Source: Promethearchaeota archaeon (GTDB lineage Archaea > Asgardarchaeota > Lokiarchaeia > Sigyniarchaeales > SOKP01). Taken from it: DNA of 64,000 nt. The stretch is taken from NCBI GenBank assembly GCA_019057795.1, contig JAHLWS010000078.1, positions 64,001-128,000 on the forward strand, written 5' to 3'. Numbering within the stretch: the first letter of the stretch is position 1; every line of letters begins with the position of its first letter. Shown piece after piece: positions 1,104-54,177 of the stretch. The translations under genes were made by a program, and so were the position numbers. Below the pieces are notes generated by a model. The model had not been told where the DNA came from. It saw only the letters and a program-made list of their open reading frames with translations, and ran no database searches.

Positions 1104-2081
1104 TTAAAATTTAAAATATTTAAGAACGATATCTTTCATCCAATTAAAATTTAAAGTTAATAAAGCGTTTGAAACATATTTTTTATTATCAAATCTAGTT
1201 TCAAATGGAATTCTTATTAAAGTTGTCAGATCTGATTGCTCTAAAAGTTTTATCCCTTCAGGTGGTTTGAGCATTATTTTTCCTTTGAAATTCTCTATTT
1301 TTAAGATATCTCTATGATTTTCTTTAAGATAAATATAAATATCTTTATAAATCATCTGAATATATTCTCTAAATTGAAGTGGAGTAATCTTATACTTTTT
1401 TCTGATTAAGTTATTATACAAATTTTTTTTCCTAAGATTCCCCACTTTTCCAAAAACTTCCATATTATACCATTTTCTAGCAGCAACAATATCCTTTCTC
1501 TGAATAAAAATACTAATGACATCATCTACTATTATTCTAAAATCTAAAGTAATATTGATGAATTGAAACCTTTCGGGCATTAAGCTTGATTTTAAGAATG
1601 CTGTTAATTCATAAATCTCTGAGAAATCTTTTGTAATTCTTGGTTGTTTTGATATATTAAAAACTACAAATCTATTTACATCCAATTTGAATTTGCTATT
1701 AATAAAAATATCAATATAATCTGACTCAAGATTAATAAGATTTGATAACTTAATAAAAAAGAAATTGTCAATTAACCCAAAATATTTAGGTTCTAATCCC
1801 AGATTGTCCGAAGATTGTTGATCATATATTTCTACGTAAAACAAATCACTTGGGATTTGAATTGGATTTTTTAAATATTGCTCAAGCAGATTTTCAATAA
1901 ACGTAATTTCACTCATAAAATTATTATATGTTCTTAGTCGATAATGTAGAGTTAAATCTTCATTTTTGCCATTATATCTAAAAAAAACTAATTTGAATAT
2001 CTCATCATATTGGTTAAATTTCTCCATTAAGTTAGAAACACATTCGAATTTATCAATCTCTCCTATACTCATATTAATCAA
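1104..2081 (-). CDS. Hypothetical protein
   Basis: 325-aa ORF, 2 nt downstream of the upstream gene. Confidence 0.7.
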   Translation of the reverse strand: MINMSIGEIDKFECVSNLMEKFNQYDEIFKLVFFRYNGKNEDLTLHYRLRTYNNFMSEITFIENLLEQYLKNPIQIPSDLFYVEIYDQQSSDNLGLEPKYFGLIDNFFFIKLSNLINLESDYIDIFINSKFKLDVNRFVVFNISKQPRITKDFSEIYELTAFLKSSLMPERFQFINITLDFRIIVDDVISIFIQRKDIVAARKWYNMEVFGKVGNLRKKNLYNNLIRKKYKITPLQFREYIQMIYKDIYIYLKENHRDILKIENFKGKIMLKPPEGIKLLEQSDLTTLIRIPFETRFDNKKYVSNALLTLNFNWMKDIVLKYFKF

Positions 2082-2083
2082 CC

Positions 2084-3466
2084 TTATGTTTGGGCAGTCT
2101 CAACTGAGTAATTATAAATATAATCAAAATTAGCTTTGAATTCTTCAATATTACTTAGAGTAATAATTTCTTCATTAGAATAATATAGATTATTAAGAAC
2201 ATCTCTATATTGTACCTTAAAATGAAAATTAAACACACCTCGACCATTCATAATAAATTGTCCTATTAACTTGTCTAACTTTATCTCAGGAGGTATATCT
2301 TGCTCAAATTCGATAGGATCTTTCTTGTCAATTTCAATTGGTATGAGGTTATTATTATCGTCTTTTACATCTATTTCAATATTATCTATTGAGATTTGAA
2401 AATCCTTTAGACATGAAATATTTATCTCAAATAAACCATTATTTGAAGAATACTGCCGATTTTTTACTTTCAATCTCACAATTGGTTTTAATATATCAAT
2501 TTTGAGTTGTTTTTCGCTGATTTTTGATAATTTACTATCATACACCGAAATAATTAATGATTCTAAATTTACTGAATTATCACCGCTTGGCACCTTCGAT
2601 ACTAATTCAAAAGGAATATAATATAGGTTAATATTTTCATTATATAATGAAATAATATTATTTGATTCATCAAAAGTATGAATAATATTGTAAAAACTCT
2701 TTATTTTCAAATTTGGGGTTAGTTTAATTTCAATCTTAGAAATTTTAGTAGAAAATAGTTCAATCCAGACCAAAATCTTTTCATTTGGAAGAGCCCATTT
2801 GTTACAATCAGCTTTAAAGTAATCTTCTGCTTTTATATCGATTTCTTCATGTTTCTTAGTATCGATCCCACTGTAATAACCATTATAACTTTCTAATAAA
2901 CAAGAAATGAGTTTCGCTCCAAAATCGGTAATCTCATAATATGAATATTCATTTGATTTCTCAACTTTTTTAAAATAATTTTGAATCATACCTCCTAGTT
3001 CTAACTTTTGTAAATGATTACTTAAAACACTCTTATTCATTTTAGTAATTTCGATGATTTTTGTGAAAGTATATGGACCCCTTTCCCTTAACAACGAAGA
3101 TAATGCAAATCTAAATTTATTCGATACCGCTTTCAGAGCCTCAGATTGATGTAATAAAAAAGATTCCTGCAAATCGATTACAAATCTCATACCAAATTTA
3201 GTTAATTCATAAAATGAGAATTCTCTTGTTTCTTCACTTTTTAATAAATAATTTTGTACAACTCCAGCTAATTCTAGTGTTTTCAAATGATTTAAAACAA
3301 GACCATTTTCAAGATCCAATATACTTCCTAGTTTTGAAAGAGATAAATTCTTATTTTTGTATAATTGAAAAATTAGATCAATCCGAATTTTATGTCCAAG
3401 AGCTTTTAATAATAATTCAAAATCTTCAGGTATATCCTTAATATACTCTTCAAGATCTTTTGACAT
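2084..3466 (-). CDS. Tandem ArsR-type winged-HTH protein with C-terminal beta-rich domain
   Basis: Two repeats: LKALGHKIR...LNHLKTLELAGVV...YELTKFG and LKAVSNKFR...LSNHLQKLELGGMI...YEITDFG. Confidence 0.8.
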   Translation of the reverse strand: MSKDLEEYIKDIPEDFELLLKALGHKIRIDLIFQLYKNKNLSLSKLGSILDLENGLVLNHLKTLELAGVVQNYLLKSEETREFSFYELTKFGMRFVIDLQESFLLHQSEALKAVSNKFRFALSSLLRERGPYTFTKIIEITKMNKSVLSNHLQKLELGGMIQNYFKKVEKSNEYSYYEITDFGAKLISCLLESYNGYYSGIDTKKHEEIDIKAEDYFKADCNKWALPNEKILVWIELFSTKISKIEIKLTPNLKIKSFYNIIHTFDESNNIISLYNENINLYYIPFELVSKVPSGDNSVNLESLIISVYDSKLSKISEKQLKIDILKPIVRLKVKNRQYSSNNGLFEINISCLKDFQISIDNIEIDVKDDNNNLIPIEIDKKDPIEFEQDIPPEIKLDKLIGQFIMNGRGVFNFHFKVQYRDVLNNLYYSNEEIITLSNIEEFKANFDYIYNYSVETAQT

Positions 3467-9702: not shown

Positions 9703-9720
9703 ATTTCTATCGCCTTCATT

Positions 9721-10542: not shown

Positions 10543-10623
10543 AGGGAAATGGTGGGAGTTGAACCCACGCTCGTCTGATTGACGGTCAGTGATCTGCCCG
10601 CGCAGTCAGGGAGATGGTCTCCC
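10543..10623 (-). tRNA. Non-canonical tRNA-like RNA (apparent GTC anticodon, Asp-like)
   Basis: Minus strand: T arm GTGGG-TTCAACT-CCCAC, anticodon arm CTGA-CCGTCAA-TCAG, 6-bp acceptor GGGAGA/TTTCCC, extended D arm, TTTATA about 20-25 nt upstream. Confidence 0.55.
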
Positions 10624-10708
10624 ATATTTATTATTAATATTATAAAATAAATTTAGCCTAATAAATATATACATTATAGTAAAAATAATAAAAGGCTATC
10701 TTACATAT

Positions 10709-10746
10709 TATTCCTCCCCCATGGTGCCCCCTCCTAAAAAAGTAGG
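10709..10746 (+). repeat. Site A copy 6
   Basis: TTCCTCCCCCATGGTGCCCCCTCCTAAAAAAGTAGG. Confidence 0.95.
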
Positions 10747-10817
10747 TGAATATTGAATATAATTCAACAGATATTTAAAAAAGGAATTTATATCTAATAC
10801 AAAGGCTTAAGCAAAAA

Positions 10818-11957: not shown

Positions 11958-12238
11958 GATCTTAATTATAACTTATTAATTTGATGTTTTCTCTTCTTTT
12001 TAAAACACATTATTTATATATATTGATTATATTATAAACCGGTTCTTATTAAAAATCAAATAAAACATAGATAGCTTTATGATGTCCAATACAATCAAAA
12101 TCTAAGTATTATGCATTCCAAACACTACCTTAAAATCTGAATAAACTCAATTTAATAGTCTTAATAAGATTTTTTATTTTTGTACACATGAAATTATTTA
12201 ATTTCAAATTGTTTAATCAAAATATGTAAGTAAAGGAA

Positions 12239-12439
12239 GTGATCGGTTTGAGATTAGATGGAGAAGGAACCTTTTTTGGTGAAATCATCGATACTCCAGA
12301 AGAATTTGTCGAAGACCTCTGCGATAGAGTCAATACCGTCTATAGCACTGCAATGGACGAGGACGATAAAATGAATCAACTCGCCTATCTCATCGGATTT
12401 CTGATTGCTCTTAAAGGAAGGCTGAATCGAGTTTTCTGA
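12239..12439 (+). CDS. Repeat family B copy 2
   Basis: Paralogue of 6015..6224 with altered last codons. Confidence 0.8.
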   Translation: MIGLRLDGEGTFFGEIIDTPEEFVEDLCDRVNTVYSTAMDEDDKMNQLAYLIGFLIALKGRLNRVF

Positions 12440-12642
12440 AAATAAAGAGAATTTTCGTCTATTCCCAACGAAATGTTAGACATGAATGGGAGATAATCGA
12501 ATTTTTATATTAAATAATAGATTGGGGATAGAAGAAGATTCAATTATTGCTCCATCTTCAAATGAAATGTTTCAAATCAGCAATAATTTAGATGTACAGA
12601 TTAAAAAAGCTATAGAAGAAATTTAAAAAAACTAAACAAGAA

Positions 12643-12933
12643 ATGCAAGTGTATTACTCCTATAGCCTGAAAGGATATGTTTTAGCTAAAATGGATATTC
12701 TCACTACAAAACCTAATGAATTAAACCAGTTAAAAATAGGTGATTGGAGTGATGTTTTATTAATTTCATTAGACAACGATTTAATTAATAATTTCTTGAC
12801 AAAATTAAAATCTAAACCCCAAACTAATTTATATATTATCACATCCTCAGTGGATCCAGACACAACCTATATGAATTTAGAAAGATTTGATAATTTTGGA
12901 TTAGATCTCAAAGTATTTAAAATGATTAGATAA
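12643..12933 (+). CDS. Hypothetical protein (possibly a fragment)
   Basis: 96-aa ORF, no recognised motif. Confidence 0.35.
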   Translation: MQVYYSYSLKGYVLAKMDILTTKPNELNQLKIGDWSDVLLISLDNDLINNFLTKLKSKPQTNLYIITSSVDPDTTYMNLERFDNFGLDLKVFKMIR

Positions 12934-13140
12934 CCTATTAATAATTTAATATAAAGTTTAATGAGCATTTAATAGGGTAAATATTTTCAAGTATATTAAT
13001 AAAAAAATTACATTTTAATCACACCTATGTTTGAAATAATATTTTTTAATTTGATTTATATAAATGAAGATTCATATAATGGTTACTTTCCTCTCCCAAT
13101 TTCATTTTCTTCATTATATCAAATTAGATGTGAGGTAATA

Positions 13141-13770
13141 TTGGGAAAATATTTAAAAGAAAAAAACCCTCATGTTGATGGTAAAATAAAAATTTTAGAT
13201 GGTTCTTCTAAACCGAATCCAAAAATTATTTTCGAATGTCAAACATCTGACAAGTTTGTTGATTCATTTATTTATAATCCATTAAATAAATCAAATGAAG
13301 GAGTATCAGCTTTATTATCTTATGATTTTGCAAATGTAGATCTCCCTTTCATATTATTAATTGAAATCTTTGAAATAAAGATGAAATTTATTGATTCCTT
13401 AAATACTTCAAAGAAAAATAAAAATGAAATCCTCCAGATAAACATTAGATACTTATTAAAAAATTATAAAGATGCCTTAATTAGAATTGGCACTTTAGGA
13501 GAGGCAATAGCTAAAGAATTAATGCGAAAGCTTAAAATTCCTTGGAAAGATTTTAGGGGGGCAATAAATGCTCTGGTACATAAAGATATAACCCGATCAA
13601 GAATAAATTATCAGTATCTGGGACATCTACTCTCTCCCCTTTATTATATAAGAAACCAAACTCATCATTCAGAACCTAAGATTGAAATTAATGAAACTGT
13701 AGCTGAATTTGCTATAAAGAATTTAACTTTAATATTAGAACATATTTATGATAAAAATATTAGATTTTAA
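13141..13770 (+). CDS. HEPN/DUF4145-like protein
   Basis: YKDALIRIGTLGE...RNQTHH; TTG start after GAGGT RBS (ORF track starts at 13027). Confidence 0.65.
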   Translation: MGKYLKEKNPHVDGKIKILDGSSKPNPKIIFECQTSDKFVDSFIYNPLNKSNEGVSALLSYDFANVDLPFILLIEIFEIKMKFIDSLNTSKKNKNEILQINIRYLLKNYKDALIRIGTLGEAIAKELMRKLKIPWKDFRGAINALVHKDITRSRINYQYLGHLLSPLYYIRNQTHHSEPKIEINETVAEFAIKNLTLILEHIYDKNIRF

Positions 13771-41353: not shown

Positions 41354-42406
41354 TTATTTATTTTTTTTAAAAAAGTCGATCATTTTTTCTATTTTACTTT
41401 TGGTAGAAAAATGAAATAAATTTTTTTGTAAAAAGTCTGGGTTAAATATTTCCTTTAATTTATTGGAAAGATCTTCCTTTAGAATAACTCTTTCTTTAAA
41501 ATTATAATGATCTAAATCAATTGTAATTGGTTTGTTCACAATTATTAAATAATATATTTTTCTGTTTGATTTAGGAAAGAATGAACTAAACTTTTTAATT
41601 ACTGATCTAGTAATATTTACTTTGTAAAGAGATTCTTTTTCAAGTTTAGTTAATTCCTCAATCAATACGATATTATTTGAGTTAATATCATAAATGATCA
41701 TCTCTGGATGAGCCATATTATTAAATTCAGAATATTTAGGATTATGTAATAGTAGTTCAATTGGAATTGTTTCAAAACCTAATAAGAAAAAGATTTTTGA
41801 TAACATTTTCGTTTTAATATCATCATTTAAACCCGTCCAATCACTATCAAGAAAGTTTCGAATATTAGTAATTTCTCCTTGATTTAGTAAAGAAAGGCGA
41901 TTTAAACTTTTATTTAAGATAACTTGATTCTGCAGATTTTTAAGTCTATTCAAAATAGTTGATTCAATTACTCCTTTAACAAATTCTTTAACATTTATTT
42001 TCAAAAAATCTATTGGGAGCATAATAATTTCTTCGGGATATACTCTTTCCACTATTGGTTGTTTGATAGTGTAATCATAGTCAACAGGTTCCCATAAGCT
42101 ATTCTCCCATTCTTCGTGATTTTCGTGTCCAATAAAAAGAGCCTCTTCTGTTGGTACTCCAGAAGTAGTTTTGTAATCAAGAGTATATTCTTTCTCAAAT
42201 CTATCTCTAAAACTTGTTTTATAGACTCGTAATTCAAATTCTTTTAAAACTTTATCATATTCAACCTTCCAAAGACTCAATGAGACATAAGGAACTTTAT
42301 CTGAGAAAGTATGAAAAAATTCAGCATACTGCGAATGTTCATTCTTAATTTGTCGTCTGAATTCTTCGACCATATTAAAAACCCATTCTTCCTGTTCCTT
42401 TTCCAT
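41354..42406 (-). CDS. Hypothetical protein, possible degenerate nuclease C-terminus
   Basis: 350-aa ORF; HPEMIIYD...IVLIEE. Confidence 0.6.
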   Translation of the reverse strand: MEKEQEEWVFNMVEEFRRQIKNEHSQYAEFFHTFSDKVPYVSLSLWKVEYDKVLKEFELRVYKTSFRDRFEKEYTLDYKTTSGVPTEEALFIGHENHEEWENSLWEPVDYDYTIKQPIVERVYPEEIIMLPIDFLKINVKEFVKGVIESTILNRLKNLQNQVILNKSLNRLSLLNQGEITNIRNFLDSDWTGLNDDIKTKMLSKIFFLLGFETIPIELLLHNPKYSEFNNMAHPEMIIYDINSNNIVLIEELTKLEKESLYKVNITRSVIKKFSSFFPKSNRKIYYLIIVNKPITIDLDHYNFKERVILKEDLSNKLKEIFNPDFLQKNLFHFSTKSKIEKMIDFFKKNK

Positions 42407-42676
42407 TTCAATCTCCTAAATCGATACAATTTAATTTTTTTACTTGTCTTTTAATAGATTTAAAATAATTAAGAATAAATATTTTTACAAAGAAGTAGTG
42501 TTTGTTTCACTTTTCTCAATAATAATTTCAAGATGAAATTTTAGTTACGGCTAATAACTATATGAAGAGACTATTTAAGTAACTAAAAAAAAAGGTTTTT
42601 TTTATTTAAATACCCACGAAATTATTTAGGATTATAATAGTAGATTCAAAATTGTTAAATAAAGGAAGTAATTGTT

Positions 42677-42877
42677 TTGAAAATTAAAGGAGAAGAAACC
42701 TTTTTTGGAGATACCATCGATACACCAGAAGAATTTGTCGAAGACCTCTGCGAGAGAGTCAATACCGTCTATAACACAGCAATGGACGAGGACGATAAAA
42801 TGAATCAGCTCGCGTTTATCACCACTTTTCTAATCGCTTTCAAAGGAAGGCTTAATCGAGTCTGCGAAAATATATAG
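42677..42877 (+). CDS. Repeat family B copy 3
   Basis: Paralogue of 6015 and 12239. Confidence 0.8.
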   Translation: MKIKGEETFFGDTIDTPEEFVEDLCERVNTVYNTAMDEDDKMNQLAFITTFLIAFKGRLNRVCENI

Positions 42878-42997
42878 AAATTACTGCAATTCATGATCGA
42901 AAACTAAAAAGATTTTTATGAGATTCCATACTTTTATTTTTATCTTAATTAGGATTAAAGTTCATTTTTAATTCCAAGTTAAGAGTATCAATCAACA

Positions 42998-43162
42998 GCC
43001 AAGGTGGCGTAGCCCGGTGAGGTCGTTAGAGTCTTCCAACCTCGGGTAAGAACGCACTAGATCTATCGGAATGCCCGATACAAGTGAAACTGAAGATCTA
43101 GGTATCAGGGGTTCAAAATGTGTCTTGCGATCCGCAACAATATGAAATTCCCCTTCTTGGCA
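42998..43162 (+). tRNA. trnF: tRNA-Phe(GAA) with three BHB introns (43019-43048, 43061-43088, 43118-43148)
   Basis: Spliced form GCCAAGG TG GCGT AGCCCGGTAGA ACGC A CTAGA CTGAAGA TCTAG GTATC AGGGG TTCAAAT CCCCT TCTTGGC A; each intron has a 4-bp helix and two 3-nt bulges. Confidence 0.93.
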
Positions 43163-43339
43163 TTTTAGATTTCACTTGAATTTCTTTTTTAAATCTTTAA
43201 TTACATTTTTAGCTTCTTCATTTAAAAATTCTCTTTATGCTTTTTTTAATCCTGTCCAATTGTCGCTATAGGTCAAAGCAACTTCTAGTTCATTGAAAAT
43301 CGATTCATTACTTACATCGCATTTCAGAATTGTCTTTTT

Positions 43340-44710
43340 TTATGAATAGTAATGAGGATCCAGCTCTCGAACTCGATTTATTTTACCTCTTAATTCATGT
43401 GACTTGAAATTTAAAAAAGTTTGATATAATTCTAAAGAGCTTGGACCTCTATTATTTTCATCATAAAATGTATCAATATAGTCATAGACAATATGGTGCT
43501 TCTCTTCTCCTCTACCATAGAGGCCATTTCCTTTTAAATATTTATTAATAGTAGGCTTTAAATCTGGTTGAGAAATCAGAAAATCTCTTAAATTAACGCT
43601 TAAAACACCTTGGTATTCTATATTACTTTTAGGATGTAACTTCTTAAACTGATTAACATATTTCGTAAAAACTGAATTCATTGGTAAAACTTCTCTGACT
43701 TCCTTGTTTCCTCTTAAAACATCAAGGATTTGGGTATTTTCTAATATTTCTCTCTTCATAGGTGACATACTTTCAATTTCTTGGCTGAGTTTTTTATTTA
43801 ACTCTTCCTGCTTTTTCATATTTTTAAATTTTTTTACAATATCATCAAGCTTGCCGAATTCATAATCTTCTGCCCATAAAGTACCATGGTGCATCTGTCT
43901 CATATCTTTACGTCTATCTAGCTTCAATTTAGCGTCATTTTTTGTTAACAAATTAATAGGGACAATATAGCTCTTAAGATTGTCCTGATTAACAGAAGCA
44001 ATAAAATCAACTTTACCTTTATACGATTCCCTAAAACGATTTCGGTTGATATTAAGTTTTCGTTGAGCTGTATCAAATCTGATATAAGTACTATCTTTTT
44101 CCTTAAATGTCCTAGCAGTTTTCACTTCTATTGCATAAAACTCACTTTTTTTTTTAACTATTAAATCAAAAGACGGTCTTCCTACAATCGGGTGAAGCAC
44201 ATTATATCCATGTTTTATAAATTCAGCGGCTATTCTCAATTCTATTGCGTCACCTCGATCAAGAGATGTTATTTCTTTCAAGAGGTTATCTTTACGTCTA
44301 ATCTCATAAAGCTTGTAATTACTTATATCTTTATTAATAATTTGAATTGGTATTAAGTAAGATTTATCACTTTTGTTATTATATATACCAATATAATCAA
44401 AATCTTCATTCTTCTTATCGAGTTTATTAGATTCTAAATTATTCTCAAAAACTTTAACTCTAGAAAACTTATCTGCACTTAAAAATGGTTTTTTACCATA
44501 TTTTTGCTGAATAATAAAATCATAATTAGGATTATTACTAATAGGTGTGGATATTATGTAGCCATTACTCACTAAATCCGCAGCAATGTTGACTCGAGCA
44601 ATTTCAATTTTATTTGGTGCTTCGACATTATCTTCTTTAATTTTTCCCCTATTTATCATCTCTATTTCATTAATATTATGAGATAAATCTTCGCTATTCT
44701 TCTTCTTCAC
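43340..44710 (-). CDS. Tandem PD-(D/E)XK endonuclease (group I intron-associated type) domains; in-frame continuation of 44777..45643
   Basis: GDAIELRIAAEF...PSFDLIV...IEVKT...YKGKVDF. Confidence 0.75.
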   Translation of the reverse strand: MKKKNSEDLSHNINEIEMINRGKIKEDNVEAPNKIEIARVNIAADLVSNGYIISTPISNNPNYDFIIQQKYGKKPFLSADKFSRVKVFENNLESNKLDKKNEDFDYIGIYNNKSDKSYLIPIQIINKDISNYKLYEIRRKDNLLKEITSLDRGDAIELRIAAEFIKHGYNVLHPIVGRPSFDLIVKKKSEFYAIEVKTARTFKEKDSTYIRFDTAQRKLNINRNRFRESYKGKVDFIASVNQDNLKSYIVPINLLTKNDAKLKLDRRKDMRQMHHGTLWAEDYEFGKLDDIVKKFKNMKKQEELNKKLSQEIESMSPMKREILENTQILDVLRGNKEVREVLPMNSVFTKYVNQFKKLHPKSNIEYQGVLSVNLRDFLISQPDLKPTINKYLKGNGLYGRGEEKHHIVYDYIDTFYDENNRGPSSLELYQTFLNFKSHELRGKINRVRELDPHYYS

Positions 44711-44776
44711 AATAGAATCGTAAATAACGATATCTTCATCTATTCTCCCTAATTGAGCTAAAACGATTTTATTTTC

Positions 44777-45643
44777 TTATGTTAAGCGAATCATCTCATC
44801 GATAATTGAATCAGATAATTTTTCTCTATTATTTCCATCTAAATTCTTGTTTTTTACCTCAAATCTTTCTTTTATAGAATCATCAATTTTAACTGAATAA
44901 ATGTTGTTTTTTCCTTCAATTTCACTCATTGGAATGAGATATGATTTAATCTCATTCCTATTATAGACCCCAAAATATTCTATTTCCCCTTTATAGCTTT
45001 TTATTCCTCCTTTAGATGAGCTGGATTGAATTGGAAATCTTTCATCCTTTGTCATAGTTTTTACTTGAACTCTATCTATTTTACCTTTCTCTTCAATTAG
45101 TATATCATATCGTTGAAAATCTCCATATGGGATCGAAACATTTTTACCATTTCTTTCTAAATCTCTTATTAAACTCAACTCAGAGATACTTCCAATTTTT
45201 TGCCTTTGACTAAGCTTAAATTTTTTAGTCGGGTGCTTTTTGTCTTTAAAATTTGTATCCGAACTTTCATTTTTTTTTTCGAGGTTTGTTTTTTCTTTTG
45301 ATGTAAATTTTATAATTTCAATAGGTTTTCCTTTATCGCCATATTTTTCTTTGATGTATTTTTTGTCTCTTTCTTCAGTCTGCTTCTCGTCTCTAATTCT
45401 TCTGTATTCATCAGGATGACTATTGAAACTAAATTTTGGATTTAATTCTGCATCGTCTATCGGTTCAAATGAATTATCCATTAAATCAGTGCTGTTCGGA
45501 TTTTCATCAGATGGGACGAAATCGTTTCCTAAATCATCTTTTTCCTCAAATCTGGATTCAGGTTGAAACTCATTTTCAAGTCTTTCACTGATTTTTTCAC
45601 TTTTTATCTTTTTTTCCTTCTCTTGTTCAGTATATTCTCGCAT
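44777..45643 (-). CDS. Conserved MREY/FEP N-terminal region plus PD-(D/E)XK endonuclease
   Basis: GSISEL...VSIPYGDFQRYDILIE...RVQVKT. Confidence 0.8.
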   Translation of the reverse strand: MREYTEQEKEKKIKSEKISERLENEFQPESRFEEKDDLGNDFVPSDENPNSTDLMDNSFEPIDDAELNPKFSFNSHPDEYRRIRDEKQTEERDKKYIKEKYGDKGKPIEIIKFTSKEKTNLEKKNESSDTNFKDKKHPTKKFKLSQRQKIGSISELSLIRDLERNGKNVSIPYGDFQRYDILIEEKGKIDRVQVKTMTKDERFPIQSSSSKGGIKSYKGEIEYFGVYNRNEIKSYLIPMSEIEGKNNIYSVKIDDSIKERFEVKNKNLDGNNREKLSDSIIDEMIRLT

Positions 45644-45699
45644 GGAGCCACCTTTTTTCTTTTAACTATATTTCTTTTGCCAGGATAAAACAAAATCAA

Positions 45700-46938
45700 T
45701 CAATTTAATTTCTTTTCTAGTTCCTTGATCACTTCTTTTCCGTAATTATTTAACTGATCCAATTTCCTCCTTTTATCTCTTAAGGCTTTTTCAATCGCAT
45801 TTATGATGTTCTTCTTATCTACTTTGTATCCATGCTTTTCACATAAATTTCTTAAGAAATTTTCATATTCGATTGAGTAGTGAATTTTTTTATCCGGATA
45901 TTTCTTATCAAGTTCTTTTTTAATTTTAGCTCTCTTAAGTGGATCCTCAAATGTTAATAAACTCATTCCAATTGTTTTTGCATGGAAGTCCCATTTTTTA
46001 GGTTTAACATTGTATAGAAATTTGGAAATCTCAAATTTATTTTCAATAGTAGTTTGATATGTTTTGAATTCCTCCTTTGTATCAGGATTTTGATAAATTT
46101 TAGGTTTAGGTATTTTTTGAGTCTCTATTCCCACAGACTCACAAATTTCCTTAAAATCTTTAACTAAAGGGAATGAGCCATTTTTAAAATTTAATCCAAA
46201 TGATTTCTGAGTATTTCTAAGATAGACTGAGCCATCAGTATCAAAAAGGCCTCGTAAACATCCAATTTTATTTCTCTCCGTTTTTTTAACCCAATTAGGA
46301 ACTTTAACTTGGTTTTTAACTTTATCTCCAGGAATTATACCTTTTTCTATCAATCCTTCTACTACTGATTTATTATATATTGTAAGGTCAGTCCCCTTTC
46401 TATCACTTTTATCATAAGATTTCGGTGAAATATTGAAGAGTTCTTCCATCAACTCTTTGGTATAATTTCGATACTTCTTTTCTTCTACTCGATTTGAAGA
46501 TATTCTTAATCGATACTTTTTACCTTTTTCGTAGTGAGTATTACCATCTCCAAGTATGATCCCAATCATTTCTGCGAGTTTTGGGTTTTCTTCTGATGTA
46601 AATTTTATAGTTTCAATAGGTTTTCCTTTATTACCATATTTTTCTTTGAGGTAATTTTTGTCTCTCTCTTTAATATGCTTCTCGTCTTTAATTCTTCGAT
46701 ATTTATCTTTATGGCTACTAAAACCAGATTTTGGATATAATTCTGCATCGTCAAATGGCTCAAACTCGTTATCAAATTTATCAGTGTTGTTAGGATTTTC
46801 ATCAATGGGAACGAAATCATTTCCTAATTCATCGTTTTTCCTGAGTTTGGTCTTGGGTTGAAACTCCTTTTCAAATTTTTCACTCTTTTTATCGCTTTTC
46901 TTCTCTTTTTCCTTCCCTTGTTCAATATATTCTCGCAT
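45700..46938 (-). CDS. Conserved MREY/FEP N-terminal region plus LAGLIDADG endonuclease
   Basis: LAEMIGIILGDG and CLRGLFDTDG motifs. Confidence 0.85.
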   Translation of the reverse strand: MREYIEQGKEKEKKSDKKSEKFEKEFQPKTKLRKNDELGNDFVPIDENPNNTDKFDNEFEPFDDAELYPKSGFSSHKDKYRRIKDEKHIKERDKNYLKEKYGNKGKPIETIKFTSEENPKLAEMIGIILGDGNTHYEKGKKYRLRISSNRVEEKKYRNYTKELMEELFNISPKSYDKSDRKGTDLTIYNKSVVEGLIEKGIIPGDKVKNQVKVPNWVKKTERNKIGCLRGLFDTDGSVYLRNTQKSFGLNFKNGSFPLVKDFKEICESVGIETQKIPKPKIYQNPDTKEEFKTYQTTIENKFEISKFLYNVKPKKWDFHAKTIGMSLLTFEDPLKRAKIKKELDKKYPDKKIHYSIEYENFLRNLCEKHGYKVDKKNIINAIEKALRDKRRKLDQLNNYGKEVIKELEKKLN

Positions 46939-46956
46939 GAAGCCCCCTTTTTGATT

Positions 46957-47508
46957 TTATTTCTCGTAAATTGATTTTTTATATTGTTCCTTCTTGAGTT
47001 CTCTGTTAATTTCTTCATCTGATTTTACAAAAAAATTCTTGACTTCTTTTATAAAATCTTTAATTCCTTGCTCTAAGTTTTTCCAAAAATCTCCTTTTGG
47101 TTTGGAAGGCTTAGGTTGTTTTTCGGGGGTACTTTTCTTTTCTGGTTGCTGAGATACATTAATAATTGTATTACCTTTATCTTTAGGGGGGTTATCAGGC
47201 GGTTCTTTATCTGGGGGGCTAATTTTATAATCAGGCGTTTCATTCACTTGAGTATTTGGTTTATCATTTTCAATATTTTGTTCTTCACCCAAACTGTCTT
47301 TATCGCCAGGATCGAATGGTTCAAAATCGTTTTGGTCGAGATTGTCATCCATTTCTCTTTCATCTTGGGGTTCGAACTCATTGTCCATTTCTTCATTGGT
47401 TTCATCATCTATATCGGTTGGTTCGAATTCGTCTTCAATATCAGATATTTCGTCTTCAATTTCGTCATCAACATCTGAATCATCTAAATCTTCATACTCT
47501 TCACTTAT
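46957..47508 (-). CDS. Acidic low-complexity protein with (D/N)(D/E)FEP repeats
   Basis: Frame is open upstream of ATG 47388 to ATA 47508, preceded by GGTGA RBS; EDEFEP, DNEFEP, QNDFEP. Confidence 0.7.
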   Translation of the reverse strand: MSEEYEDLDDSDVDDEIEDEISDIEDEFEPTDIDDETNEEMDNEFEPQDEREMDDNLDQNDFEPFDPGDKDSLGEEQNIENDKPNTQVNETPDYKISPPDKEPPDNPPKDKGNTIINVSQQPEKKSTPEKQPKPSKPKGDFWKNLEQGIKDFIKEVKNFFVKSDEEINRELKKEQYKKSIYEK

Positions 47509-50338
47509 TTTTGATCACCTTTTTTTTTTCTTTTAAAAAATCAAGATTAAATCTATTCTGAGAATCAAGTAAATCGGGAGATAATGGTTCTCCACAATAC
47601 GTGCACATAAAATCATTCTCATCAGGGGGATTACTACAGTATGGGCATATATTTTTGTCATGTGACATGTTAATTTGTTCTCTGAGCTCTTGTTTATTAA
47701 CTTTAATATCTAATGTTTCAATGATAAATTTTTCTCCATTAATTCCGTTTAAAATTAACGCTTGTCGGTTTTTTTGGCACATTAGGAATTCCTGCTCTAC
47801 GGGATTTCCGATCATAATAGTATTGCAAGGATACCCGACCCGAAAAATAATTTTCAAGCTGGGGAGTGTGGTAACGCAATCAAAAAGTCTTGAAGGGGTT
47901 TGGTCCGATAAGATAAAGGAGAGTCCTTTGGAGCGAAATTCTCTTAAAAGCTCGTTGAAAATTTTTTCTAATTGTTCTCGAGAAATAAAGTCATCATCGT
48001 CGTAATTGTTTGTGATTGATTTTTCTAAGATCTGGTGAGCCTCGTCAATTAAAATAATGTTTTTTAATTTACCAGCTTCTCTATCTGGAATTAAAACGCG
48101 GATTAATTGAAAAATCGCGCTTGTTAAGACTCTCTTTTCGTAAATCGTGCACATCGAGAAATCGAGAAAAATTTTCTTCCCTTTCTGCCAATCCATAAAC
48201 CAACCAGGAACCGCTTTATCAGGGTTTAAACGGAGGGTATTCGTTAAAATTTCGTTGGAAAAAAGTGAGAGCACTCGATTTTTTATAGCCCTTACTATGT
48301 TAGTTTGAAACTTTACATGGTATGGATATTGTTCAAAATACCTTAGGAGATTCTGAAATAGCATTTTTAACGAGCTAGGTAATTTTCCTTTCTTTGTTAG
48401 AAACGAGTTCATTACGTTGACCATATTCTTTTCGACGATATTTTTTAACCCAAGAGCAGCAATTAAGTAAGTAGCAGTTTCTTGTAAGCTTCTTTCAAGA
48501 TACTGTCCTTCATGAAAATAAGGCACTTTGAAATCAGAGGATCCAAATTTAATAACTTTATCAACTTTATAGAAAAGTTCCTGATTTCCTTTTCCAAGGT
48601 TTAATATTAGAATTCCGACATCAGGGTTTTTATTATAAAACTCGTTAACGATTTGAGCTAAAAGATAAGTTTTTCCCGTACCTTGTTGTCCTGCTATCAA
48701 AAGACTTTGAGCGAAGGAATTTTTATGCAATAATATTTTTCGCTTGGTGCTTCTCCCATTGTTGACATATTTCCCAATTAAAATATGATTTGGGTCACTA
48801 TCGCTAATAGGAATGTGTTTAATATTTTCATTTCTTAAAGTAAACGGTTTAGTTAACGGGATGTTCTCCGGAATGTTAAAATCAACGCAATTAGATGTAA
48901 TATAACCTCCAGATATGATGTTAACCCGTTTAATATTTCCATGGGTTCCTAAAGGTACTCTTTTAAGCTGTGCTGGATTTTTTTTATTGCGGCAGGACAA
49001 TGTAAGGCTCTTTAATTTACCCTCGAGGGTTTGAATTTCTTGTTTCATTAACACGGGATCAGTTTGGTTTATTTGATAATTGATATAAATCCGCACTCTG
49101 AAAATATCATCTTGCCACATTGATAATAACCGTTTTTTTTCATCTTCGTCTTTGAATTTTAAATTTCCAATTTTATCTCTAAATTTGCTAACCTTCTTAT
49201 CTTCAGTTCTTTTCCAGATGATGTAGAGTTTAACTTTTTTATCGCTCCGATGGAAAAGATTAATAAAATCGTTGATTAGTGTAAATTTCTCCATATAAGG
49301 TGGTTTAGGTAATTTGATTTCCCAAAACCGGTTATTCTTGTAAATTTTCTGTTTGGTAATGGGTTTTAATTCCAAAGTTCCATCTAAACCAGGATACATA
49401 CTCGTTATTCGGCTGAGAAGTGCTTCCCCCAATACTCTTGCTGTTTTCTCGTTTCGAGCTTTGAGAAAAAAAGTCCATCGAAAATCTTTATCTGATTTCA
49501 ATTCTAGGCCATATCTGTGTTTATCAGAGAAAAAATCTTTTAACCAAGCTATTTCATTTTCATTTTTCTCGCTTCCATATTCCATATTTTTACTAAGAAC
49601 TCCTTGGGAAATTTTAACTCTAGCTTGCCAAAAGAGAATCTTATTTTTTTTCTCTTTTTTAGGCTCTAATTGCTTTTTTTCTTCGTTTTCATAACTATTG
49701 ACGCGATGCCTTTTAGATACCTTTAATTTTAATACAATAGTTTGATAGAACGAGGTTATTCTGTTTCTAAAAGATTCGTTTGAAATAGCAATTGTAAGAG
49801 AAACTAAGCATAGCATAAGAGACGCTAAAACAAAAACATCTAGAATTATGGAACTATAAAAAAATAGAGATAGTCCAATAAAAAAGGCTATTAGTTTATA
49901 CTCTTCGTCAAATGGAATAACGATTATAGAAATAACTACGCCTATAATAGTAATGGTGAGCGTTCCAGTAATAAACATATCTGGAAGTCCGACAACGAAA
50001 ATATGAAATGCTAATAGAACCATTATCGAATGAAAGTATAATATTAGATTAGATCGAAAGTTCCTTTGAAATATGAATAAATTGACGCAAAGAACAATTA
50101 GGATTATAAAAAATTCCATTTCAATAAGAATGATGATACTTGGACTCAAAAATTTTAGAAGGAACATATCTTCATATATTATAAAAATAATAACCATTAG
50201 AATAAATGTTCCAAAATACTTCATTAAAGATTTAATCCGTTCTTTCTTATCGGTCAGCCAGTAATAAATAGAAATTAAACTAATAAGTGTAATCGCGATA
50301 ATAATGCCTAGCCAAAAGTTCTCAGAAAAGAAACTCAT
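47501..50338 (-). CDS. Membrane-anchored HerA/FtsK/VirB4-like ATPase with C-terminal zinc ribbon
   Basis: About 7 TM helices; Walker A GQQGTGKT, Walker B ILIDEAH, REFRSKG...SDQTPS; CPYC...CTYC. Confidence 0.85.
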   Translation of the reverse strand: MSFFSENFWLGIIIAITLISLISIYYWLTDKKERIKSLMKYFGTFILMVIIFIIYEDMFLLKFLSPSIIILIEMEFFIILIVLCVNLFIFQRNFRSNLILYFHSIMVLLAFHIFVVGLPDMFITGTLTITIIGVVISIIVIPFDEEYKLIAFFIGLSLFFYSSIILDVFVLASLMLCLVSLTIAISNESFRNRITSFYQTIVLKLKVSKRHRVNSYENEEKKQLEPKKEKKNKILFWQARVKISQGVLSKNMEYGSEKNENEIAWLKDFFSDKHRYGLELKSDKDFRWTFFLKARNEKTARVLGEALLSRITSMYPGLDGTLELKPITKQKIYKNNRFWEIKLPKPPYMEKFTLINDFINLFHRSDKKVKLYIIWKRTEDKKVSKFRDKIGNLKFKDEDEKKRLLSMWQDDIFRVRIYINYQINQTDPVLMKQEIQTLEGKLKSLTLSCRNKKNPAQLKRVPLGTHGNIKRVNIISGGYITSNCVDFNIPENIPLTKPFTLRNENIKHIPISDSDPNHILIGKYVNNGRSTKRKILLHKNSFAQSLLIAGQQGTGKTYLLAQIVNEFYNKNPDVGILILNLGKGNQELFYKVDKVIKFGSSDFKVPYFHEGQYLERSLQETATYLIAALGLKNIVEKNMVNVMNSFLTKKGKLPSSLKMLFQNLLRYFEQYPYHVKFQTNIVRAIKNRVLSLFSNEILTNTLRLNPDKAVPGWFMDWQKGKKIFLDFSMCTIYEKRVLTSAIFQLIRVLIPDREAGKLKNIILIDEAHQILEKSITNNYDDDDFISREQLEKIFNELLREFRSKGLSFILSDQTPSRLFDCVTTLPSLKIIFRVGYPCNTIMIGNPVEQEFLMCQKNRQALILNGINGEKFIIETLDIKVNKQELREQINMSHDKNICPYCSNPPDENDFMCTYCGEPLSPDLLDSQNRFNLDFLKEKKKVIKNK

Positions 50339-50559
50339 TTATTCAGTCTTTAGATTTTATAAATAAGTTCGAGAAGATTTATAAAAAGTAAGAGAATTTT
50401 ATATGTTTGAATAGTTATAATTATTCTAGATTGAAAAAAATCCTTATTCCGAGTAATATAATCTCAACATTTTCAATACTTAAAAAAAAAAATGATAAAT
50501 CTTTTAAAAATGATTAATAAAAATAATAATAATTAGATAAAAATTAAGAAATATGACTT

Positions 50560-51756
50560 ATGAACTTCGGCGAATTTTGTTCTACAGTTAAAAAATTTTT
50601 CGAGGAATCTCTACAAAATGTAAATGAAGAAATAAGAAATGGAAATATTAAAATAAAAGTTGATTATTCATTTCCATCGTATTTAAGAATTGGAGAGAGC
50701 CCTCAACATTGGATGGCGGAATTAACTGGAGCTAGTGAAATGATTAATGTTAATAATTATGGACTTGAAGCGCCAAATGTAAGTGAAAAGCATGAAAATA
50801 CATCTGCTTTTTTCAATCCTGGTTTAGATATTGAGGATTCAATGAAACCAGTATCTAATATTGTAGCAGTAAAAGGTGTTGGATTTGTTAATTTATGTGT
50901 TGCTACAAATTATGATTATACTGCTTTTAAAAAATTTATTAATTTAGAAACTTCATCTACTGAGGTTAGACTTGATAGTGCTGAGGTTCCAATTACAATT
51001 CAACCAGACTGTAAAACAATTTTTTTCTATAATGTCGACCTGATAAGAACTGAAAATTTCAAATTATTTTTTAAATCTATTCCCACAGCAATAGCAGTTA
51101 AAAAAAACATTACAAGAAATGAATTGAAACAATTTCTAAAACAACTTGTGAATAAATTATTTAAATCAAGGCCACCTACGATTTTTGGGATAAATATAGG
51201 TTATTCTTATTCCTCAGAGAAATTTGCTCGAGATTTATTGAGTTTAACAAATCAACCTATAAATGAACCTATAATTGATGGATTTATTCAAAAACATTTG
51301 AAATTTTTTACAAAAGGTCTTGGATATCAAAGAGGGCTTAGCCAAACTGAATTGAAAATATTAGAAGGAGACTTTGGAGATAAAGAATGTCTTAAACCTG
51401 ATTATTTGATGTTAAGAAATGATGGTTTTTATGATATTCTTGATCTTAAGACATCTGCTTTAAAGAAGAAATCAATCACGATAGGAGATACAAGTCGAAT
51501 GAGATTTAATGCATATGTAAGTGAATTAATATCTCAACTTGTAGGTTATGAAAGATATTTCAAATTAGAAAAAAACTATAAATGGGTTTTAAAAAAATAT
51601 GGTATAAAAATAAGAAATCCAAAACTAATTGGAATTGTTGGTAGTTTTCAAAATTTCGATCGCTCTCAGGTTGATTTAGCATTAGAACAATATAAAGATA
51701 ATATCGCTATTTTAAGCTACTCTGATTTAATCAATTTATTAAGAAAAAATATCTAA
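50560..51756 (+). CDS. Shedu (SduA/DUF4263)-like nuclease
   Basis: KPDYLM...DILDLK...ELISQLVGYERYF...LIGIVG...ILSYSDL. Confidence 0.7.
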   Translation: MNFGEFCSTVKKFFEESLQNVNEEIRNGNIKIKVDYSFPSYLRIGESPQHWMAELTGASEMINVNNYGLEAPNVSEKHENTSAFFNPGLDIEDSMKPVSNIVAVKGVGFVNLCVATNYDYTAFKKFINLETSSTEVRLDSAEVPITIQPDCKTIFFYNVDLIRTENFKLFFKSIPTAIAVKKNITRNELKQFLKQLVNKLFKSRPPTIFGINIGYSYSSEKFARDLLSLTNQPINEPIIDGFIQKHLKFFTKGLGYQRGLSQTELKILEGDFGDKECLKPDYLMLRNDGFYDILDLKTSALKKKSITIGDTSRMRFNAYVSELISQLVGYERYFKLEKNYKWVLKKYGIKIRNPKLIGIVGSFQNFDRSQVDLALEQYKDNIAILSYSDLINLLRKNI

Positions 51757-53295
51757 ATTATCTGGGATGTCAATAAAATCTAATTTAATGACCGATAAAA
51801 TATTTTCAGAAGGTATTTCACAGAATATTTCCCTTACACCCTTATTTATAGTAGTAGTGATTACTTCTGGTGGAAAAGTTTGAAAGATATAATTAGAATC
51901 CTCCTGAGTTGTAGATATCCACCAATATGGATTTTCATAAATATTATATATTCCAGATTCAGCTGGAGCAAGACATCTTTCATCAAAACTTTGAGGAAGG
52001 ATAATTCTAAGGTTTTGGGAGAATATTGGACCACTTCTGTCATTATCAATATCATTTTGAATAATCATTTCTGACTGGAATTCAATATTTTCTATAGGTA
52101 TTGAACCATCTCTATCCTTTAGTTGGATATTACTTTGATTTTGAGTTAAAAGATTATAAGAGAATTTATTCAAAACTTTATCTTGAGTTAACGGTCTCAA
52201 ATTATCACTGAGATCTCTAATCCTATTTTCAAATTTCCAGTCTGATTCCCCATTCAAGAAAAGATTAAGCTCAAAATCCATTAAGATTTTTATAGTAGAC
52301 ATTAAAATTGATGTATCATTAACAAATCCAGGTGAATGTGTATATTTTTCCAAACTATGTCCGATTTCATTCCTTCGAGTATATATTTGGCGAAAATATT
52401 TTAACATGGCTTGAATGTATTCATTTTCCTGTAATTCTTTAGTTAGACGGTTACTAAAATAACTTTTAAAACGCTGGTTGAGCGATCTCATTATATTTCT
52501 ATCTGTAGGAAATATAGAATTCTTGAAGGAATTCAATTGTTTCAATTTATCGTTGCGTAAGTTTTGATCTTTAATAAACTGTTCAAAATTAGATCTTAAA
52601 TCTTCATGTATACCCTTTTGCTCATTTGGATCTGCAATTGCAGTACCCCATAAATGAGAATATCCATGAAAATCTGCCCAATTATGGAAAATTCCCTCGA
52701 ATGTTGCGTAACTAAAAAAGTAACCGATTAACACTGAATTACCTACTTTACTATTAGCATAATTATACATAATTGCCCTCAATTTGTCTGTAGGTTTGAA
52801 TTGTAGTAATTTGTTAAGAAGAGGAAAAAATAATTGATATTGATTATATTCTTCTTGAAAATTACTACTGTGATCACATTTTAAATCAATTACTTTCTGA
52901 AAAGAGAGTTTAGGACGACTATTCTGCTCTTCAAAGTTTTCAACATGGAAATAAACTTTAGCTTTCAAATTTAAATTAATAATGAAACGCAGAAGATATA
53001 AAAAATCCATTATCCAACTACATAAATTATTATATAATCCAACATTCTCGAGAAAAGATTCTTTCGGTGTGATATTGACACCTAACCATATTGAGTCAAT
53101 ATCCATACCGCCTCTGCGTCTGAGAAGATCAGTTGGTAACTGTGGTTTAGGTTCAATACCCTCAATATATACTTTGTCATCCCTAATAGTAGATCTTCCT
53201 GTGGTGAATAGATCATGAGGAAAATTGTGAAGAGTGTTAATACCATGATAATTATCTTTATCAATAAGATGTACTATGAAAAAAGATTCTGTCAT
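51739..53295 (-). CDS. ApeA-like HEPN protein
   Basis: SYATFEGI...RRNEIGH. Confidence 0.6.
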   Translation of the reverse strand: MTESFFIVHLIDKDNYHGINTLHNFPHDLFTTGRSTIRDDKVYIEGIEPKPQLPTDLLRRRGGMDIDSIWLGVNITPKESFLENVGLYNNLCSWIMDFLYLLRFIINLNLKAKVYFHVENFEEQNSRPKLSFQKVIDLKCDHSSNFQEEYNQYQLFFPLLNKLLQFKPTDKLRAIMYNYANSKVGNSVLIGYFFSYATFEGIFHNWADFHGYSHLWGTAIADPNEQKGIHEDLRSNFEQFIKDQNLRNDKLKQLNSFKNSIFPTDRNIMRSLNQRFKSYFSNRLTKELQENEYIQAMLKYFRQIYTRRNEIGHSLEKYTHSPGFVNDTSILMSTIKILMDFELNLFLNGESDWKFENRIRDLSDNLRPLTQDKVLNKFSYNLLTQNQSNIQLKDRDGSIPIENIEFQSEMIIQNDIDNDRSGPIFSQNLRIILPQSFDERCLAPAESGIYNIYENPYWWISTTQEDSNYIFQTFPPEVITTTINKGVREIFCEIPSENILSVIKLDFIDIPDNLDIFS

Positions 53296-53559
53296 TTTTG
53301 GGGTTTATTTTTTCTTTGGTTATAATATTCTGAAAAATATATAAACTTCCCCTTTAGGAAAGGAGTATCAGTCAATTGAATTAAAATTAGATCACGATTC
53401 ATATATCATCAATGAAGAATGTCTTTTTAATTTAAAACATTATGAAGAAGTTCTAGAAGCCATTGAAAATGCCATTATTTCCGGTAAGGAGGAGTGGTTA
53501 AGAATTAATGATCTAAATTTAGATTTAAGAATTTGAGTTAATAGTTGAAATTTATTAAG

Positions 53560-54177
53560 TTAAATTATCAACTTGATGTAAGTTGTAAATCCGAATACGA
53601 TGCTCAATATTATTCCTAAAAAAATTAAACTGATAGGCTTATATTTGGTGCGTAAAATATTCTTGTTATAAACCACCAAAAATAATCCAAGAGATATTAA
53701 TATTACTGAGATAAAGGACATTAGGGCTGTAAAAAATATGAAGCTTATCGTTATATCATTATAGGGGAGAAGATCATTTATTGTAATTATTGAATTAAGG
53801 GCGTCTTCAACTTCAAATCCTCCAAACCAAATCACGAATGGGGGTAGAGTAAAAGATTGATCGAACCACAGTAAAAGAAATGGGATCACTTTAAATAAAA
53901 ATAATATTGCTACAAACACAAGTATAGCCGCGCTAATTCTCCCTCTCTTTCTTATAAATTCTAAATTCCTTCCATAAATTTTTTGTTTATCTTCAACATT
54001 TTTTGCGCTTACTAATAAATATCCTCCTAAAACGAAGTAAAATAGGAATAAGATCAGGTTTCCATACTGAAATATATTATAACAAACAAAATTGAATCCC
54101 CTAAAAATACCATTTAAACTTTCAAGAAGCGATTCTACTATATCATCTATGATATTTGTTTGTCCAAGAAAAATCAT
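53560..54177 (-). CDS. Membrane protein
   Basis: 4 hydrophobic segments. Confidence 0.75.
   Translation of the reverse strand: MIFLGQTNIIDDIVESLLESLNGIFRGFNFVCYNIFQYGNLILFLFYFVLGGYLLVSAKNVEDKQKIYGRNLEFIRKRGRISAAILVFVAILFLFKVIPFLLLWFDQSFTLPPFVIWFGGFEVEDALNSIITINDLLPYNDITISFIFFTALMSFISVILISLGLFLVVYNKNILRTKYKPISLIFLGIILSIVFGFTTYIKLII

Follow-up and report, generated by a model that had tools for sequence, protein, structure and literature searches.

Tagged, exchangeable nucleases encoded beside a predicted VirB4-type membrane ATPase in a Lokiarchaeia genome

The DNA considered here, referred to as the window, is a stretch of 64,000 nucleotides (nt), being positions 64,001-128,000 of contig JAHLWS010000078.1 (contig C78, assembly GCA_019057795.1) of a Promethearchaeota archaeon, the genome of which is a Lokiarchaeia-type metagenome-assembled genome of 4.95 Mb with a G+C content of about 27%. 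Its minus strand is occupied between 43340 and 50338 by four closely spaced genes with intergenic gaps of 112, 18 and 56 nt. These are an ATPase gene (47501-50338, 945 amino acids (aa)), a gene for an acidic protein (46957-47388, 143 aa), a gene in which an N-terminal leader precedes a LAGLIDADG nuclease (45700-46938, 412 aa, leader at 46576-46938), and a gene in which a similar leader precedes a PD-(D/E)XK nuclease. The last gene is interrupted in the assembly, such that its leader-bearing open reading frame (ORF) covers 44777-45643 (288 aa, leader at 45281-45643) and is followed by an ORF of 456 aa at 43340-44710. The first-pass annotation of this DNA had described a minus-strand operon with a multi-transmembrane (TM) ATPase, an acidic protein and two paralogues sharing a leader, and this description stands, as do its assignment of the two C-termini to the LAGLIDADG and PD-(D/E)XK nucleases and its observation that an F-x-P motif recurs in all three proteins encoded after the ATPase, where it is found to be a conserved element of the leader. 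The new element is the set of tagged, swappable nucleases, which are encoded beside an ATPase of predicted VirB4-type fold. Related loci, genomes and contigs are numbered with the prefixes L, G and C, respectively.

The ATPase starts with about six hydrophobic helices within residues 1-190 (TM region, ~49739-50338), which are followed by an N-domain that is VirB4-like in the predicted structure (48899-49648), by the motor domain (47672-48859) and by a C-terminal zinc ribbon (47582-47653). The Walker A motif (GQQGTGKT at residue 550) and the Walker B motif (IILIDE at residue 761) are both intact. The Pfam matches, that of the zinc ribbon included, are weak (AAA_22, DUF87 and ResIII being near or below the cut-off), none of the VirB4, CagE and TrbE models of Pfam and NCBIfam recognizes the protein, and a sequence search of solved structures gives no useful match and no detectable similarity to solved VirB4; the likeness to VirB4 described below is therefore structural only. 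The AlphaFold2 model of residues 231-945 has a predicted local distance difference test (pLDDT) score of 86. When this model is compared with known structures, the motor domain ties at Z 26-30 with DndH-C (29.7), HerA (27.1) and VirB4 (26.5), the match with the VirB4 of T. pseudethanolicus (Z 26.5) covering 329 aligned residues with a root-mean-square deviation (rmsd) of 3.3. The N-domain has also been modelled separately (pLDDT 88.5), and its top match among 48,161 Protein Data Bank (PDB) representatives is the region of residues 21-391 of TrwK/VirB4 (Z 11.3, 222 residues aligned, rmsd 4.3), the second-best match being an ESX-3 subunit (Z 9.6); in Foldseek the top 12 matches are all TrwK. The fold of this domain is alpha/beta and VirB4-like, and it is not the HAS-barrel of HerA. 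Since the motor belongs to the HerA/VirB4/DndH/TrwB clade and the N-domain matches TrwK/VirB4, the ATPase appears to be built like VirB4 and CedB-CedD rather than like HerA. As modelled, it is VirB4-type in fold and not HerA or FtsK, and the HerA/FtsK label given to it earlier is replaced here, the comparison with CedB and VirB4 made at the same time having been apt. PADLOC finds mad8 and a weak HerA as the best matches of the ATPase, and no NurA, Sir2 or DUF4297 partner is found in the locus by Pfam or PADLOC. A reading as a virus packaging ATPase was dropped, there being no capsid genes and the related modules comprising just three to four genes.

Over 121 gap-free residues, the leaders of the 412-aa and the 288-aa protein have 66% identity (E 2e-43), and beyond this point no similarity is found. 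In an alignment of 12 leader sequences D41-F42-x-P44 and F59-x-P61 are invariant and F26-x-P28 is nearly invariant, and the ratio of nonsynonymous to synonymous substitutions (dN/dS) of the leader is 0.3-0.5 at larger divergence. The 143-aa protein has a pair of DxFEP motifs, a linker rich in Pro and Lys and a C-terminus that is basic and amphipathic. It belongs to no Pfam or PADLOC family, has dN/dS values of 0.32-0.53 and is kept immediately after the ATPase in L025, L052, L053, L031, L041 and L069. Among the 5576 ORFs of the source genome, acid-flanked F-x-P motifs in the N-terminal part are most numerous in the three window neighbours of the ATPase, and acid-flanked aromatic-x-Pro arrays are otherwise almost limited to two nuclease-like genes of contig C70. 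Judged by these counts, the presence of the motif in the three window proteins is not a matter of chance.

The same kind of tag is seen when the comparison is extended to about 31 ATPase loci spanning 27-96% ATPase identity, with FEPxDE, FDPNDD, WDPN, YNPFEC and YEPL as motif variants. The next downstream gene is strongly acidic at its N-terminus in ~18 of these loci (background 0.14% of the genome ORFs) and has at least two acid-flanked aromatic-x-Pro motifs in ~15 (background 1.9%), these counts being descriptive, as the loci are related and not independent, and including the manual correction of three spurious small ORFs. A tagged gene follows the ATPase in L025, L052, L053, L031, L030/L033, L028/L032, L041 and L069. 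The linkage of leader and ATPase that was suggested from the window is thus found at other loci as well, and it is incomplete, given the unlinked copies and the two tag-bearing genomes discussed below (G104 and G006), in which no ATPase has been found. Five kinds of partner are joined to the leader or tag, namely LAGLIDADG type A, LAGLIDADG type B, Hint+LAGLIDADG, a triple PD-(D/E)XK_5 and HNH_3, and a one-off duplication with just two C-termini, which the first-pass annotation had named as the outcome that would speak against it, is not what is observed. Further tagged neighbours of the ATPase are Hint+LAGLIDADG proteins (L030/L032/L033), a helix-turn-helix (HTH) array (L028) and proteins with large unknown domains. 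A search of 161 Lokiarchaeia genomes with the leader profile gives matches in 3, too few for an assessment of co-occurrence with the ATPase. When the same genomes are searched with the DNA pattern for D-N-x-F-E-P-x-D, there are 9 matches versus 4 in the reversed control, at least 2 of the matches being due to chance, and 4 of the 7 genomes concerned have the ATPase. When the soluble part of the ATPase (residues 231-945) and the leader of 121 residues are co-folded, alignments being supplied for the two of them, the score is 0.16 versus a mark of 0.32 and the leader is disordered, an outcome that counts neither for nor against binding.

The nuclease part of the 412-aa protein matches LAGLIDADG_3 (1.4e-11) and LAGLIDADG_2 (1.7e-5) in Pfam, and the acidic residues are kept in both of its LAGLIDADG motifs, ILGDG (residue 130) and FDTDG (residue 234). 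Its core has a dN/dS of 0.27 against L025 and has no match in a sequence search of solved structures. The 288-aa and 456-aa ORFs share the same frame and are separated in the assembly by a lone TAA at 44777-44779. In L025, a 90%-identical contig with the same gene order, this site reads CAA and lies within one unbroken ORF of ~776 aa. For these reasons the two ORFs are considered as one broken gene, and 43340..45643 corresponds, by this sequence comparison, to one ancestral gene of ~776 aa, encoding the leader, three PD-(D/E)XK_5 domains and a C-terminal region. The Pfam family PDDEXK_5 is matched at 8e-17 and, with two stretches, at 9e-32, the 456-aa ORF accounting for two of the three domains. 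Concerning the catalytic motifs, domain 1 has D...QVK, domain 2 is degenerate and domain 3 has D...EVK. The third domain matches the solved homing endonuclease I-Ssp6803I (PDB entry: 2OST, 9e-5), which itself reads QVK at the site aligned with the QVK of domain 1. The region past the TAA has a dN/dS of 0.37, and because of this value the break may be recent or the separated piece may still be in use. Together the ratios indicate that the genes of the module are under purifying selection. The nuclease folds found, as assigned by family, are all of the homing-endonuclease kind, which fits better with site-specific cutting than with killing.

Different nucleases stand behind the leader in near-identical loci. 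In L052, where the ATPase is 96% identical, the gene of a 205-aa membrane protein, the ATPase gene and the gene of the 143-aa protein are kept, and the gene that comes next encodes a 749-aa protein in which this leader is combined with a Hint+LAGLIDADG end. The nucleotide homology between L052 and the window ends at 46679, at about codon 86 of the leader. In L053 (88%) a different LAGLIDADG nuclease stands behind the leader, and the last ~50 codons of this gene, together with its downstream flank, recur in the window directly after the stop of the PD-(D/E)XK gene, as shown by blastn and by translation. This stretch, 43172-43321 on the minus strand (~50 codons with one internal stop), is the orphaned 3' end left by a displaced LAGLIDADG cassette of the L053 type. 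When the window LAGLIDADG gene is compared with that of L025, the synonymous divergence (dS) is 0.48 in the leader versus 0.11 in the core, and the leader of the L025 LAGLIDADG gene matches instead the leader of the window PD-(D/E)XK gene (dS 0.085), which is why we conclude that leaders have been exchanged. Near-identical loci evidently swap nuclease cassettes behind a constant leader, with the homology breaking within the leader. The same locus has different cassettes in the window and L025, in L052 and in L053, which looks like replacement at a fixed site, as is seen for homing endonucleases. Small conserved ORFs, as candidates for an immunity gene, are absent downstream of the cassettes in the window, L025, L052 and L053, so that the earlier statement that no immunity gene is evident holds for every allele.

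The ATPase family comprises 78 clusters among 5.8 billion proteins, and all those with a labelled source are from Lokiarchaeota or Promethearchaeota. It is present in 51 of the 161 species genomes of the class, nearly all of them in one family (49 of 134), and by these searches it seems to occur only in Lokiarchaeia. Its distribution is patchy, with insertions in housekeeping operons, often with multiple copies per genome and with pseudogenes having up to nine stops. The source genome holds extra copies on C53, C82 and C84, and the copies break the assembly. One large conjugative element on contig C53 was considered and dropped, since housekeeping genes lie between the ATPases. The ATPase occurs in two forms, one of ~940 aa with the fused TM region and one of ~650 aa without it, the latter being preceded by a TFB-like gene and a gene for a separate M50-like membrane protein. 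The possibility that the TM region originates from a fusion with this M50-like protein of the TM-less subfamily was given up, as the two have no similarity. L028 and L031, which are close family members, also encode another ATPase, of FtsK/HerA/TrwB-like type, which adjoins the first in L028 and lies in its vicinity in L031; three homologs of this type exist elsewhere in the source genome, and the window contains no VirD4/TraG coupling protein.

Several of the more distant neighbourhoods have features of their own. A distant TM-fused subgroup (L037-L040, from G097, G130, G125 and G158, with 27-30% ATPase identity) has a fixed operon, in which the genes for a polytopic membrane protein of 520 aa and for the ATPase are joined by those for a basic protein (~240 aa), a pilin-like protein (124 aa) and a T2SSE-type (VirB11/PilB-type) ATPase of 730 aa. 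Judging from this content, the operon may encode a more complete apparatus for transfer or for a pilus, and the pilin-like and T2SSE genes are seen solely in this subgroup. In L022 (G004:C109, ~2600-13150) a module of four genes, encoding a TFB-like protein, an M50-like membrane protein, a 655-aa ATPase homolog and an acidic giant protein of 1360 aa, with no integrase seen, lies between a 192-aa ORF (2031..2609) and a 201-aa ORF (13150..13755), which, read by eye, we take to belong to a ribosomal-protein gene cluster. In L021 (4481-8566) and L022 (3209-7291), the TM-less ATPases have giant acidic partners that share ~680 N-terminal residues (48% identity) and have unrelated C-terminal halves, the L021 half containing a LAGLIDADG domain homologous to that of the window. 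As the two giants share the N-terminal part and differ in the C-terminal halves, the design of a constant N-terminus and a variable C-terminus recurs at a larger scale. Untagged proteins are also found near the ATPase homologs, namely a 987-aa SIR2-TPR protein that adjoins one of them in L023 (4271-7234, G018:C72), a 688-aa protein with a GIY-YIG domain recognized by Pfam in L024 (1349-3415), and the counterpart of the latter in L051 (8982-11033), matched by its similar N-terminus alone.

In the window, the gene of the 205-aa polytopic membrane protein, which has at least three hydrophobic helices and is a recurrent partner of the membrane-fused ATPase, is located at 53560..54177 on the minus strand. 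A 94%-identical copy lies immediately upstream of the ATPase in L052, and homologs are close to the ATPase in L034 and L036; no Pfam family matches the protein, and the ESM Atlas similarity scores (at most 0.83) are uninformative. When compared with the 94%-identical L052, the window has an inserted 3.1-kb block (50466-53539) that separates the gene of the 205-aa membrane protein from the ATPase gene. This block contains a Shedu-like gene with an SduA_C domain (50560-51756, plus strand) and a 518-aa gene of no family (51739-53295, minus strand), and it appears that with the former a defence gene has landed within the ATPase module. Downstream of the cluster, at 42598-42947, a segment of ~120-330 nt overlapping a 66-aa ORF is found three times in the relative contig L053 (77-85% identity), and it looks like a dispersed repeat at the cassette borders. 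ARAGORN finds no tRNA in the window, and 42400-43400 has no Rfam match at E<=1, a result that a multi-intron tRNA could evade in both searches.

It is possible that these genes form an accessory, selfish-looking Lokiarchaeia module centred on the membrane-embedded VirB4-type ATPase and its small membrane partners. The unstructured acidic N-terminal array of aromatic-x-Pro motifs would then be a common handle that marks the neighbours of the ATPase, by which the small constant protein and the interchangeable nucleases would dock onto the ATPase, a reduced translocator resembling those of type IV secretion systems (T4SS) and the Ced system. In this way site-specific DNA cutting would be linked with the passage of DNA across the membrane, and the nuclease would either prepare the DNA at the machine or be handed over with it. 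The nuclease cassettes are swapped by recombination inside the shared leader. In favour of this reading are the predicted fold of the ATPase, the T2SSE, pilin-like and second ATPase genes found beside its relatives, the acidic tagged genes downstream of it, the invariant F-x-P columns, the swapping of cassettes and the mobile behaviour of the family. Archaeal conjugative plasmids and the Ced/Ted systems have VirB4 homologs and no known relaxase (PMC9905601), so that a nuclease partner would fill a known gap. We put forward this docking of homing-type nucleases to a Ced/T4SS-like machine of a selfish island as a tentative proposal, which we favour without expecting it to prove right as a matter of course. 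This caution is due to the existence of unlinked tagged copies and to the fact that binding of the tag to the ATPase, like transport and the activity and targets of the nucleases, is something we infer.

The observations that weigh against such a machine concern both the locus and the distribution of the tag. No pilin, VirB6-like channel or coupling protein is identified at the window locus, the window PD-(D/E)XK gene carries a stop, and the surroundings are rich in defence genes, with an AbiTii gene beside the module in the window and SAVED and STAND-like genes in L052. The MREY... leader is uncommon, being found in 7 representatives among 1.8 billion proteins and in 3 of the 161 Lokiarchaeia genomes. 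Tagged nucleases are also free-standing among housekeeping genes, far from any ATPase, which makes the earlier description of the homing endonucleases as 'domesticated' doubtful. A 554-aa tagged LAGLIDADG protein is encoded in G028 (L004) between the genes of L7Ae and S6e. On contig C78 itself, just past the window, a 554-aa tagged gene of the LAGLIDADG family (L027, 2063-3727) is flanked by a creatininase-family gene on one side and a TIM-barrel gene on the other, and its counterpart in another genus (L064, 6149-7636, G114) occupies the same intergenic site; one of the two copies has six non-acidic F-x-P repeats and the other three acidic Y/F-E-P motifs, and the remaining N-terminus differs. 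Contig C70 of the source genome (G000) has two tagged-gene loci (L055 and L054) with no ATPase near, encoding a 491-aa LAGLIDADG protein with three D-W-E-P motifs (125182-126657) and a 450-aa protein with FEP motifs and an HTH-like middle part (5616-6968). The C-terminus of the latter, which has no Pfam match, presumably resembles a Vsr/DUF559-type nuclease, as judged by eye, and its neighbours we likewise assume to be housekeeping genes (proteasome- and exosome-like). In G104 (97% complete), where the FEP tag is fused to HNH_3, as confirmed, and in G006 (87% complete), where a 422-aa tagged protein is found, no ATPase homolog is found at E<=1e-5. In G098 intact tagged genes stand beside a decayed ATPase remnant; an ORF of the same genome (L069, 3-698, G098:C92) has an H-x-L-R-K-x-x-A-T stretch and no Pfam match, and from its appearance we suppose it to be tyrosine recombinase-like.

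The main rival explanation starts from these free-standing copies and holds that there is no direct link between tag and ATPase. Free-standing homing endonuclease genes would have gathered next to a conserved gene of a mobile island, much as happens at conserved genes of phages. The tag would be of use to the nucleases themselves, for instance through contact with a replication or repair factor of the host or through control of the nuclease, and the acidic partners of the ATPase would merely resemble the tag or use the same host factor. This would account for the fact that all nuclease folds belong to homing families (LAGLIDADG, Hint+LAGLIDADG, PD-(D/E)XK_5 matching I-Ssp6803I and HNH_3, with GIY-YIG nearby), for the lone tagged nucleases in intergenic housekeeping sites, including the L027/L064 site where the motif is kept in two genera, and for the tagged genes of genomes where the ATPase is not found. 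However, the tag is also present on non-nucleases encoded right after the ATPase, both small (143-221 aa) and giant (0.7-2.3 thousand aa), beside ATPases down to ~30% identity, and such arrays are otherwise almost absent from the proteome. We regard this explanation as a serious possibility, albeit a doubtful one. Even if the link with the ATPase were indirect, an N-terminal tag common to homing endonucleases of unrelated folds would still be new for such selfish genes.

A role in defence against viruses or plasmids, in which a membrane HerA/VirB4-like motor senses incoming DNA and recruits tagged, swappable nuclease effectors, would agree with the location in defence islands (the inserted Shedu-like gene, AbiTii, and SAVED and STAND-like genes in L052), with mad8 and HerA as the best PADLOC matches, with the SIR2-TPR gene adjoining one ATPase homolog and with the presence of variable effectors behind a constant adaptor, which is typical of defence systems. 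This role is nevertheless unlikely, as the N-domain is VirB4-like and not the HerA barrel of Sir2-HerA and DUF4297-HerA, LAGLIDADG and intein-type nucleases are unusual as effectors, the modules behave like mobile DNA with many decayed copies, and tagged nucleases are found without the ATPase.

A more far-reaching reading is that of homing between cells. The F-x-P array would be a translocation signal, the VirB4-type machine would pass the endonuclease together with DNA into a neighbouring cell, the nuclease would cut the empty allele there, and the incoming DNA would repair the cut. As the donor is without the target site, it would have no need of an immunity gene, and the tagged nucleases would stand in for the relaxase, an enzyme never detected in archaeal conjugation. 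We rate homing between cells as improbable. Polymorphic-toxin-like competition, in which the ATPase would export tagged nucleases into rival cells and kill them, is the least probable of these readings, since its resemblances (a constant N-terminus with variable nuclease C-termini, recombination in the leader, the orphan C-terminal stub, the Hint domain ahead of the nuclease in some alleles and the linkage to a secretion-type ATPase) are set against cassettes lacking an immunity gene in all four loci compared, nuclease families of the site-specific homing type, a locus in which no channel or pilus gene is identified, and many tagged genes unlinked to the ATPase.

When the module is compared with known systems, each of them shares some of its features. 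HerA-NurA, Sir2-HerA/Nezha and DUF4297-HerA share the pairing of nucleases with a motor from the same clade (Z 24-27), whereas here a VirB4-like domain replaces the HerA barrel, the protein is membrane-embedded and the nucleases are unrelated. The polymorphic toxins (Rhs, CDI, LXG of type VII secretion systems, and the XVIPCD effectors of the Xanthomonas T4SS) are alike in combining a constant targeting part with a variable nuclease, in the replacement of cassettes within the constant part, in the orphan remnant and in the linkage to a secretion-type ATPase. They differ in that immunity genes are absent here and many copies are unlinked and free-standing, in that the place of a folded trafficking domain is taken here by a short, disordered array of motifs at the N-terminus, and in that the nucleases here are of the LAGLIDADG, intein and I-Ssp6803I types. 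Free-standing homing endonuclease genes (seg and mob of phage T4, I-Ssp6803I and archaeal LAGLIDADG genes) have the same nuclease folds, and they are alike in occupying intergenic sites of conserved loci, in presence and absence, in replacement between strains and in decay by stop codons. We know of no N-terminal tag that is common to several folds of homing endonucleases, nor of a recurrent place of such genes after a VirB4-type ATPase.

The comparison with the T4SS, represented by VirB4/TrwK, and with the Ced/Ted systems, represented by CedB, CedD and TedB, is the one that bears on the proposed coupling. These proteins are alike in the two-domain build with a VirB4-like N-domain and a motor of the HerA/VirB4 clade, and the systems are alike in the attachment to the membrane, in the small membrane partners and in the occurrence in archaea without a known relaxase. 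The partners here are acidic F-x-P-tagged proteins and homing-type nucleases, which to our knowledge are known in no T4SS or Ced system; about six TM helices are fused to the ATPase, which also has the C-terminal zinc ribbon, and no VirB6/CedA-like channel or VirB2-like pilin is recognized in the locus. CedB and CedD are homologous to different parts of the VirB4 N-terminal domain (PMC11868833). For Asgard archaea, no conjugative machinery had been described at the time of a survey of their mobile elements (PMC11529989), and VirB4, HerA and LAGLIDADG are unmentioned in the searchable literature on Asgard mobile elements and defence. A portable tag on the neighbours of a VirB4-type ATPase, joined to five kinds of site-specific nucleases, is a testable candidate for the coupling of cutting and transfer, and the module may point to a new way by which DNA cutting is coupled to DNA transfer in archaea.

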